Virus record (IMG/VR): IMGVR_UViG_2597489870_000004
Direction: 5' to 3' (one strand)
DNA: 45,587 nt
DNA from: a virus
Lineage: Duplodnaviria; Heunggongvirae; Uroviricota; Caudoviricetes
Shown: one piece after another, positions 30,667 to 32,064 of the stretch
How the letters are laid out: each line of letters opens with the position of its first letter
Numbering within the stretch: position 1 is the first letter of the stretch
Notes under the pieces: generated by a model
Database searches by the model: none
The model's input: only the letters and a program-made list of their open reading frames with translations
What the model was told of the DNA's origin: nothing
Position numbers and translations under genes: made by a program

Positions 30667-31716
30667 TCAAACGATTAAATCCTGAACTTCCCTGACTGTC
30701 TGTTCAAAACGTCCTGTCTCCAGCTCAACACCAATCGCACAACGCCCCAGTGCCATCGCCGCTTTTACCGTTGAACCTGAACCCATAAAAAAATCTGCAA
30801 CCAGGTCTCCCGGACGACTGCTCGCGTTGATTATCTGCTGCAGCATTTCTGCCGGTTTTTCGCACGGATGTTTCCCTGGATAGTACTGCACCGGTTTATG
30901 CGTCCAGACATCGGTGTACGGAACCTGCGCCGTCACACCGAAATACCGCCGCAAATTTTTATATTCACTCAGCAGTTCCGTATACTGCCGGTTCAGCTCA
31001 CTGTATGTGCTGACCAGCTGGTGGTGTGGCTTTTCCAGTTCCCCGCGCTGATGTTTTTCTGCCGCAACACGCGCAAACAACGCCTGCAATTTGTTGTAAT
31101 CACCCTCGTTCGGTAACTGCCACTGACTGGTACCAAACCAGTGCGAAGCCATGTTTTTCTTTCCGGTGGCTTCCGCTATCTGTTTTGACGTTATTCCCAG
31201 TGATTTACGCGCATCACGAAAGTAAGAAATCAGCGGGGCCATGACGTGCTGTTTTAGCTCGCGCCCCTGTGCCACATAGCCATCATCTTTCGGGCGATAC
31301 GGTCCCTGATAATGTTCTGCAAACAGAATGCGCTCTGTTGCCGGAAAATACGCCCGCAGACTTTCCTTATTGCACCCGTTCCAGCGTCCGGACGGCTTCG
31401 CCCAGATAATGTGGTTCAGCACATTAAAGCGCTCACGCATCATGATTTCGGTGTCAGATGCCAGGCGATGACCACAGAACAGGTAAAGACTTCCGGCAGG
31501 CTTCAGTACCCGCCAGAACTGCGCCAGACACTGGTCCAGCCATTTCAGGTAATCATCGTCGCCCTCCCACTGGTTATCCCAGCCCTCGGGCTTCACTTTA
31601 AAGTATGGCGGGTCTGTGACTATCAGATCGACAGAGTTTTCCGGTAAGGTCTGGATAAATTCCAGGCAATCAGCGTTGATTAACTCACAACTGGATATTT
31701 TTACAGTATTAATCAT
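30667..31716 (-). CDS. DNA methyltransferase (N6-adenine/N4-cytosine type; DPPY motif IV near N-terminus, FxGxG motif I near C-terminus)
   Basis: 349 aa; LIVTDPPYF and DFFMGSGST motifs visible in translation; no adjacent restriction endonuclease gene. Confidence 0.8.
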   Translation of the reverse strand: MINTVKISSCELINADCLEFIQTLPENSVDLIVTDPPYFKVKPEGWDNQWEGDDDYLKWLDQCLAQFWRVLKPAGSLYLFCGHRLASDTEIMMRERFNVLNHIIWAKPSGRWNGCNKESLRAYFPATERILFAEHYQGPYRPKDDGYVAQGRELKQHVMAPLISYFRDARKSLGITSKQIAEATGKKNMASHWFGTSQWQLPNEGDYNKLQALFARVAAEKHQRGELEKPHHQLVSTYSELNRQYTELLSEYKNLRRYFGVTAQVPYTDVWTHKPVQYYPGKHPCEKPAEMLQQIINASSRPGDLVADFFMGSGSTVKAAMALGRCAIGVELETGRFEQTVREVQDLIV

Positions 31717-31866
31717 AGATCAATAAGCACTTCTCTGATAGGCTCATACCGCTTTTGCGCAAAGCAGATGGGCCTGAGGTTTGCTTGTGACCCCAACGCA
31801 TGAGCAGATGGCTGGCAGGTGCCGCTAACACCCACCAGCCGCCCATTACCACAAATTAAAAAACCT

Positions 31867-32064
31867 TCACTGAGGAAGGCGTCTGTAACAACCGAACTGA
31901 TAATCTGCCAGACCCGCCATAACAAGCTGAGTCAGTATTAACTGGCAGCGTTCGCGTGAAAGGTAAGTATTCTGCGCAATTTCCCCGACGGTCGCCGGTT
32001 CGGTGACGCTTAATTCATTAAACACCACTCTGGCGGTTTCGGTCATATCCTGCTGTTTTAGCAT
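31867..32064 (-). CDS. Hypothetical small protein, possible winged-helix DNA-binding protein
   Basis: 65 codons from ATG 32064 (MLKQQDMTETARVVFNELSVTEPATVGEIAQNTYLSRERCQLILTQL...); maximal ORF to 32187 would begin inside the terminator. Confidence 0.45.
   Translation of the reverse strand: MLKQQDMTETARVVFNELSVTEPATVGEIAQNTYLSRERCQLILTQLVMAGLADYQFGCYRRLPQ

Follow-up and report, generated by a model that had tools for sequence, protein, structure and literature searches.

M.EcoGII of Escherichia coli O104:H4 strain C227-11 is a DNA methyltransferase of 349 amino acids, which is identical to M.EcoGI at 333 of 349 positions and is non-specific for deoxyadenosine both in vitro and in vivo (PMC5778455). 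It also methylates single-stranded DNA, RNA and RNA/DNA hybrids, many restriction enzymes are blocked by its modification, and it is silent in the lysogen and deleterious or toxic once expressed (PMC5778455). M.EcoGII is active when cloned alone, and enzymes of this family are used commercially. Phage 1720a-02 was named as a carrier of a very similar enzyme (PMC5778455), and anti-restriction self-methylation is the role proposed by the characterising authors (PMC5778455; PMC12707154). Here we analyzed a locus of this type, in which an orphan methylase gene is preceded by a small winged-helix gene and a conserved leader RNA, in a stretch of phage DNA of 45,587 nucleotides (IMG/VR record IMGVR_UViG_2597489870_000004; the whole stretch is called the window below). 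We consider it likely that the methylase is an ordinary hypermethylation gene, carried as cargo in the late operon of a lambdoid prophage, that it belongs to the non-specific M.EcoGI/M.EcoGII family, is silent in the lysogen and has an anti-restriction role. The gene thus represents an already known enzyme family in its usual place; the leader RNA is a new item, hitherto unannotated.

Several other systems resemble this one in part. A review sets the M.EcoGII-type enzyme beside Mom of phage Mu (PMC12707154), and Mom, like the enzyme predicted here, is a late, lysogen-silent and toxic adenine modifier of phage DNA (the parallel in silence and toxicity is drawn in PMC12707154). Mom and the window methylase are not known to be related in sequence or fold. 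In Mu, a small open reading frame (ORF), com, lies just upstream of mom, and the mRNA is structured at the start site, likewise here. The product of Mom is N6-carbamoylmethyl/acetamido-adenine, unlike the N6-methyladenine made by M.EcoGII-type enzymes, and Com is a zinc-finger RNA binder, whereas the window ORF encodes a winged helix which is dispensable in many loci. Hia5, Hin1523 and Nma1821 of Mu-like prophages are likewise described as prophage-encoded adenine methylases of relaxed specificity in an anti-restriction slot, and differ from the window enzyme in hosts and phage types (PMC3299994). Finally, M.PflMI, CcrM, M.RsrI and M.MboIIA have the catalytic fold and motif order in common with the window enzyme, but unlike the window family they have defined recognition sites, and several site-specific beta-class enzymes belong to restriction-modification pairs or to cell-cycle control.

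The methylase and its family

The whole window matched, with 0 mismatches, the reverse complement of enterotoxigenic E. coli H10407 (NC_017633.1:1289847-1335433), where it corresponds to a lambdoid prophage of 45.6 kb extending from the integrase through the tail fibres (RefSeq annotation). In the methylase, motif IV (DPPY, residues 35-38) is located N-terminal of motif I (FxGxG, here FMGSG, residues 310-314), which is the beta-class order, and a profile search matched residues 29-340 to Pfam N6_N4_Mtase (E=2.1e-44). An earlier, sequence-only reading had proposed a beta-class N6A/N4C enzyme; the class and the motifs were confirmed, and the target could be narrowed to N6-adenine, as the enzyme belongs to the M.EcoGII family. 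N4-cytosine specificity was ruled out by the DPPY motif together with the identity to M.EcoGII. Beta-class structures (M.RsrI, CcrM, MboIIA and DpnA) align with the methylase at the two conserved ends only.

The window methylase and M.EcoGII are both 349 amino acids long, and 317 of 348 aligned residues (~91%) are identical; the M.EcoGII sequence used for this comparison had been extracted by machine from a PDF (Supplementary Table S1 of PMC11551740) and has a few misread letters, so that the true identity may be about 1% higher. A helix-turn-helix-like target-recognition region is present, as in M.EcoGII, and the two proteins hardly differ in the charged two-helix linker EKHQRGELEKPHHQLVSTYSELNR.Y.ELLSEYKNLRRYF. 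The ~30 substitutions fall mostly in the central recognition region. The enzyme of phage 1720a-02 is identical at 312 of 349 positions, and the order in that phage is Q, small ORF, methylase and stx2A; thus, the window enzyme shares with M.EcoGI and M.EcoGII its length, motif order, recognition region, linker and prophage-borne orphan status, and the slot (Q, small ORF, methylase, tRNAs) is as in 1720a-02. From these comparisons, the window methylase is predicted to be a sequence-non-specific N6-adenine DNA methyltransferase of the M.EcoGI/M.EcoGII family.

No endonuclease is adjacent to the gene or annotated anywhere in the 45.6-kb prophage (RefSeq), in which RusA and a recombination exonuclease are the only annotated nucleases. 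The methylase is therefore an orphan, as had been suggested from the sequence, and a Type II restriction-modification system was rejected since no adjacent cognate endonuclease gene was found. Such a partner is not expected because the enzyme family is non-specific.

It is very improbable that the gene encodes a site-specific orphan methyltransferase of the Dam or CcrM type, which is expressed in the lysogen as an epigenetic regulator and is a true moron. Regulatory orphan methylases do exist in phages (P1 Dmt and others, PMC12707154), the predicted structure of M.PflMI, the nearest relative of the family among characterised site-specific enzymes, is similar overall (PMC11551740), and the differences from M.EcoGII are concentrated in the recognition region. 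However, the 91% identity to M.EcoGII is full-length, and the charged linker, which separates the M.EcoGII clade from M.PflMI (where it is absent), is present (PMC11551740). Moreover, reconstructed ancestors that are much further from M.EcoGII are still non-specific and keep both DNA and RNA methylation activity (PMC11551740), and homologues with 92-93% similarity in O111 Shiga toxin-producing E. coli are listed as "nonspecific", with no motif in the lysogens (PMC6602927). The epigenetic moron of the sequence-only reading is also unlikely given the published work and the position of the gene, which lies behind two terminators, with no promoter-like site on its strand between Q and the methylase (promoter scan). 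No methylome study of H10407 was found in our literature searches.

The stretch that begins at tR' and runs through the end of the methylase gene (query 30620-32230, which excludes Q and the tRNAs) was present in 2200 of 5426 complete E. coli genomes, about 40%, with a median of 2 and up to 7 copies per carrying genome. It was also found in 297 phage records, mostly Shiga toxin (Stx)-converting phages, between Q and stx.

Setting in the late operon and predicted silence in the lysogen

The minus-strand order is RusA, Q, tR', winged-helix gene, hairpin, a 150-nt gap, methylase and three tRNAs. The features are as follows:

32847-33212, minus strand: RusA gene (RefSeq)
32296-32838, minus strand: Q-type late antiterminator gene, WP_000640017.1, "DUF1133 family protein" (Pfam and RefSeq)
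32181-32299, minus strand: presumed pR'-type promoter region, short leader RNA and tR' intrinsic terminator (fold; promoter inferred)
31867-32064, minus strand: 65-amino-acid winged-helix ORF, WP_000917767.1, first gene past tR' (ORF list and RefSeq)
31857-31880, minus strand: second terminator-like hairpin, overlapping the winged-helix stop codon (terminator scan)
31717-31857, minus strand: structured leader RNA, ~140 nt (covariance model)
30667-31716, minus strand: 349-amino-acid M.EcoGII-family DNA methyltransferase, WP_000611206.1 (ORF list, Pfam and RefSeq)
30542-30617, minus strand: tRNA with CAU anticodon, Ile according to RefSeq (ARAGORN, as tRNA-Met; Rfam)
30458-30534, minus strand: tRNA Arg-UCG (ARAGORN)
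30368-30444, minus strand: tRNA Arg-UCU (ARAGORN and Rfam)
30354-30335, minus strand: terminator-like hairpin 3' of the tRNA cluster (terminator scan)

Both ORFs lie where the sequence-only reading had placed them, and RefSeq annotates exactly the same ones. The Q gene matched Pfam DUF1133 (E=6e-103) and Phage_antitermQ (E=2e-6), and the methylase, being downstream of Q and tR', is in the Q-dependent late transcript as had been assumed. It is the second gene of that transcript and not the first, since the winged-helix ORF precedes it. The published work on M.EcoGI and M.EcoGII gives no account of the place behind tR', of the winged-helix ORF or of the leader RNA (PMC5778455), and the words "antitermin" and "tRNA" have 0 occurrences in the text of that paper.

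The tR'-like terminator noticed earlier is well formed: a 12-bp hairpin (~32216-32188) is followed by U7 (the whole at ~32216-32181), 80 nt past the Q stop codon, and the 93-nt tR' stretch folds at -38.8 kcal/mol (z = -6.1). The terminator scan placed a second hairpin with a U6 run at 31880-31863 (GCCUUC-CUCAGU-GAAGGU). The related loci all have a hairpin here, with a sequence that differs between loci, and this is so even where the winged-helix gene is missing. Among the σ70-like pairs the best one, TTGATT-17-TTCAAT at 32299-32271, was below the scan thresholds. The RNA expected between pR' and tR' is ~77 nt long with two hairpins; the minus strand of 32189-32262 gave a weak, sub-threshold match to Rfam isrK, a family of Salmonella Hfq-binding prophage RNAs (21.6 bits against a gathering score of 50, E=0.089).

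The prophage location, the two terminators and the lack of a promoter-like site found by the scan are consistent with silence of the methylase in the lysogen, which we predict. RNA polymerase starting at pR' would halt at tR', with the second hairpin behind the winged-helix ORF, so that the toxic enzyme would not be made; this agrees with the published silence. Upon induction, Q-modified polymerase would pass both hairpins, if the known mechanism of Q applies, and the read-through transcript would contain the winged-helix gene, the leader, the methylase, the tRNAs and the lysis and morphogenesis genes. The enzyme could then methylate adenines of the replicating phage DNA whatever the sequence, and packaged genomes would probably resist adenine-methylation-sensitive restriction in the next host. 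Anti-restriction self-methylation had also been suggested from the sequence, in agreement with the published proposal (PMC5778455; PMC12707154).

A main role other than escape from restriction, such as marking or compaction of the phage DNA, a shut-down of DNA or RNA transactions of the host, or interference with co-resident prophages or with defences that read methyl-adenine, appears unlikely. M.EcoGII does act on single-stranded DNA, RNA and RNA/DNA hybrids and harms the cell (PMC5778455), and the presence of several copies per genome would mean that the enzymes act in trans on each other's DNA. On the other hand, protection from many restriction enzymes is the sole demonstrated consequence, and Mu-like prophages carry unrelated non-specific adenine methylases exactly in the anti-restriction slot of mom (PMC3299994).

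Several points weigh against an anti-restriction cargo that is silent in the lysogen. The non-specificity of the H10407 copy is predicted from ~91% identity, and the differences lie mostly in the central recognition region. Plasmid DNA modified by M.EcoGII is 4-5 orders of magnitude less efficient than control DNA in transforming E. coli (PMC5778455); heavy methylation is therefore costly, and a net gain to the phage is presumed. In addition, pR' was not placed with confidence and its location is putative, and the leader RNA is found before holin genes in two phage contigs, which argues that its role is not strictly tied to methylases. Finally, phage particles are perhaps no longer made by this prophage, in which case the enzyme may be without current use here. 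An IS66-family element (tnpA, tnpB and an ISCro1-type transposase) is inserted at 18591-21206, between the head-decoration and major-capsid genes, and the prophage may be unable to form capsids and perhaps defective.

Past the tRNAs, the minus strand carries a gene remnant, a DUF3927 gene, two holins and an M15 endolysin (RefSeq). The remnant is a RefSeq truncated pseudogene ("missing N-terminus") at 30121-30324, right behind the tRNAs, and its slot is the stx position in Stx-converting relatives. The tRNA trio is a cluster of the ileZ-argN-argO type, as annotated in Stx phages. Its Arg-UCG member scored 26.4 bits against an Rfam tRNA gathering score of 29 and is absent from the RefSeq annotation; it may be degenerate. 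The tRNAs were rejected as members of the module, as among 33 loci scanned they lie directly behind the methylase only in an Escherichia locus (L002); in L069, an unrelated tRNA-Asn is located ~790 nt downstream of the methylase. The prophage also contains hokD (a type I toxin gene), dicB and ydfD (~34713-34868 and 41228-41605, RefSeq), which are typical cargo of Qin/Rac-like prophages.

A structured leader RNA before the methylase start codon

We compared loci from 80 genomes of different species, whose methylase relatives are 56-91% identical to the window enzyme; the upstream DNA is intact in 76 of them. The segment between the second hairpin and the methylase is conserved in Escherichia, Klebsiella, Enterobacter, Citrobacter, Salmonella, Buttiauxella, Rosenbergiella, Proteus and Morganella, far above what is expected of an intergenic spacer, and this holds in loci without the winged-helix gene. 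A covariance model detected a single full-length copy in each of 44 of the 80 genome loci (108-174 bits), on the sense strand and with its 3' end at the AUG, and shortened or weak forms occurred in Photorhabdus, Xenorhabdus and Gilliamella. The helices of the window copy are:

31840-31810, minus strand: helix P2, 12 bp
31808-31780, minus strand: helix P3, 10 bp
31775-31740, minus strand: helix P4, 13 bp
31729-31717, minus strand: 3' arm of P6, immediately 5' of the AUG

Pairing was scored on a structure-neutral alignment of 77 distinct leader sequences, the same sequences from which the structures were derived. P2, P3 and P4 together were 87.6% paired, compared with 29-40% when partners were slid, and across the tested helix sets 87.6-92.5% of cells were paired versus 29-44%. 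Double-sided changes were found at 14 pairs, versus 7.7±1.4 in shuffles which ignore phylogeny (0 of 500 reached this value). For example, one P3 pair occurs as C-G (28 sequences), A-U (26), U-A (13) and U-G (4). In the most stable folds of diverse members, a further, long-range helix, P6, forms between the 3' side of P3 (AGGUCA-C-AAGCG) and the 13 nt just before the AUG (CGCUU-AC-UGAUCU); it was 89% paired, with double changes in 5 of 11 pairs. P3 and P6 are mutually exclusive, yet both covary. Another short helix, P0' (AUGGG/CUCAU), was 100% paired and competes with the 5' arm of P3. P1, which would close a three-way junction, is invariant in the alignment, and its sole covariation (UGGGG/CCCCA) came from one weak Gilliamella match; the data are compatible with both an outer P4 stem and P1. 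A fifth helix, P5 (AUCAG/CUGAU), was dropped, as it showed no covariation and many broken pairs. A GATC (Dam site) right before the methylase AUG, at 31717-31722 on the minus strand and within P6, is almost invariant in the 77 leaders. Judged by its alignment, the leader appears to be a strongly conserved structured RNA with covarying helices.

Coding explanations of the conservation were rejected. In relatives, one-base indels disrupt a 47-amino-acid ORF (31709-31852). A leader peptide, MGGWWVL, which has a trp-type look and begins at an AUG that is invariant in the leader, has no conserved length and no ribosome-binding site; by eye, its second Trp codon varies (UGG/AGG/CGG) in step with P2 pairing.

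It is quite unlikely that these 140 nt are conserved as a DNA-level element, such as a protein operator (for example a palindrome bound by the winged-helix protein) or a recombination junction, or through recent common descent. P2 is an inverted repeat in the DNA, the region lies at a mosaic boundary which joins different cargo genes, and many junction bases never vary and are uninformative on pairing. However, frequent G-U pairs are tolerated only on the transcribed strand (one P2 pair is U-G in 32 and U-A in 24 sequences, and a P6 pair is G-U in 62 and A-U in 15), covariance-model matches above 100 bits were on the sense strand only, and the one-base indels rule out coding. In addition, the leader persists in loci without the winged-helix gene, and in the Proteus version and in the C5-linked and holin-linked versions described below the architecture of the three helices is retained although their sequences are entirely different.

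The start-sequestering fold was the minimum-free-energy structure in 7 of 7 representatives, with the alternative 0-13 kcal/mol higher, and no Shine-Dalgarno sequence was found before the methylase AUG. These features suggest that the leader controls translation of the methylase, which is probably gated in that start-adjacent bases are paired in the stablest fold, while the segment that pairs them can instead form P3. Such a layout is that of an off-by-default translational switch and would suit a toxic gene. We further propose, tentatively, that the leader represents an undescribed class of structured RNA heading lambdoid late operons, a two-state translational switch under the control of an effector; this stronger claim is possible rather than probable. 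By default, the start-codon bases would pair with the GGUCA segment at 31793-31789, whose partner UGAUC lies at 31721-31717, and the P3 fold, possibly as a P1-closed three-way junction, would free them. Candidate effectors may include the winged-helix protein, S-adenosylmethionine or S-adenosylhomocysteine, or co-transcriptional folding behind Q-modified polymerase. Translational riboswitches are similar in their covarying stems round invariant junction bases, in mutually exclusive helices such as P3 and P6, and in a start hidden in the stablest fold; in contrast, they have a defined effector, whereas that of the leader is hypothetical, and P1 of the leader is invariant.

The leader was detected in 2727 of 5426 complete E. 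coli genomes (about half), in 5043 copies. A terminator hairpin always precedes it. Of 137 copies examined, 131 extend to the start codon of a DNA methyltransferase gene, four are followed by other genes and two are cut by a contig end. A diverged leader was found between a lambda-type Q gene with its terminator and a C5-cytosine methyltransferase gene in five phage contigs and one metagenome contig; the C5-linked leader loci are L404 (2870-3000), L378 (1217-1348), L484, L487, L490, L516 and L522. The C5 assignment is based on Pfam DNA_methylase (1.5e-41), a class unrelated to the window methylase. By eye, these copies keep the P2, P3 and P4 architecture with different sequences, and in them and in Gilliamella the start codon itself (AUGACC) has its complement in a GGUCAU segment. 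The first codons of the C5 methylase, MTS. (mostly MTSK), are common to the M.EcoGII-like gene of Gilliamella (L080). Two viral contigs (L512 and L533) have holin and lysozyme genes behind the leader and lack the methylase, and in L190 (7419-7512) and L232 (3402-3307) the winged-helix gene and a diverged leader are followed by unrelated cargo, again with no methylase. The RNA therefore is not strictly tied to methylases: it belongs to the head of the late operon and is found mostly, but not only, before DNA methylases. Upstream of the module, 38 of 59 loci carry a Q gene, which belongs to one of three unrelated Pfam families, and therefore the module recombines freely with Q genes.

The segment 31717-31866 matched none of the 4227 Rfam 15 families at E<=1, and a known riboswitch, ribozyme or prophage small RNA was excluded on this basis. 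No annotated feature was present under the leader among the phage records listed, including SfV, mEp460, cdtI, phiP27 and Stx2c phages, or among the E. coli copies listed, and text searches, including full-text searches by sequence, found no paper which describes the leader as a small RNA or regulatory element. In a metagenome scan with a loose pattern, 117 of 120 matches were by chance.

The winged-helix protein and the meaning of the locus

The 65-amino-acid ORF had been described from the sequence as winged-helix-like and as a possible regulator. Its AlphaFold2 model (mean pLDDT 89.6) contains helices at residues 4-16, 26-33 and 37-49 and strands at 53-56 and 59-62, which supports the first part: the protein is predicted to be a winged helix with three helices and a beta-hairpin wing. 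Foldseek gave only generic winged-helix matches with TM scores of 0.7-0.84 (IclR and MarR regulators, O-methyltransferases and SelB), the curated Pfam cut-offs were missed (TrmB, 18.0 bits versus 25.6; MarR_2, 14.7 versus 27), and there was no NCBIfam match. We detected 334 homologues, which among the matches listed are from enterobacterial genera throughout; many carry the name "TrmB family", an automatic database assignment. The protein evolves faster than the methylase, with a conserved motif, RCQL(I/L)LTQxxxAGL. Cysteines 40 and 59 are invariant in close homologues, and the first of them (in RCQL) is kept in nearly all distant ones. A reader of methylated adenine similar to DpnI was rejected, as neither sequence nor fold gave evidence for it and DpnI was not among the top 50 fold matches.

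Of the 76 loci with intact upstream DNA, 58 have a homologue of this gene (37-98% identity) immediately before the methylase. The methylase and leader are kept without it in the remaining 18 and in 13 of 37 viral loci, and the winged-helix gene occurs without the methylase in two phage contigs. It is thus a frequent but optional companion. A role similar to that of Com or of C proteins is possible, with adjacency as the support. That the protein is a dedicated methylase regulator, either a Com-like opener of the leader or a C-protein-like repressor or activator, seems doubtful. A small ORF directly 5' of a toxic modification gene with a structured leader lacking a Shine-Dalgarno sequence would fit such a regulator, as would the com-mom-like layout. 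The parallel with Mom has been drawn in the literature (PMC12707154), the adjacency in the genome loci is frequent, and in two contigs the winged-helix gene is followed by the diverged leader with no methylase. However, leader and methylase are unchanged in the loci that lack the gene, and the C5- and holin-linked leaders also occur without it. Moreover, a residue count shows the protein to be slightly acidic, its third helix is hydrophobic, its scores stay below the curated family thresholds, and its fold matches are generic.

The methylase gene itself adds nothing new, being one more copy of a characterised family. The anatomy of the locus, with two terminators past Q, a leader which pairs the start region and no ribosome-binding site, offers a concrete reason for the silence of M.EcoGI and M.EcoGII in the lysogen, the cause of which was left open by the original papers. 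About half of complete E. coli genomes carry the leader, as do Stx phages, upstream of stx, and cultured phages such as SfV, mEp460 and cdtI. If it is true that it controls translation of late cargo, it would be relevant to the timing of toxic phage genes, and it may bear on the expression of genes in the interval from Q to stx.

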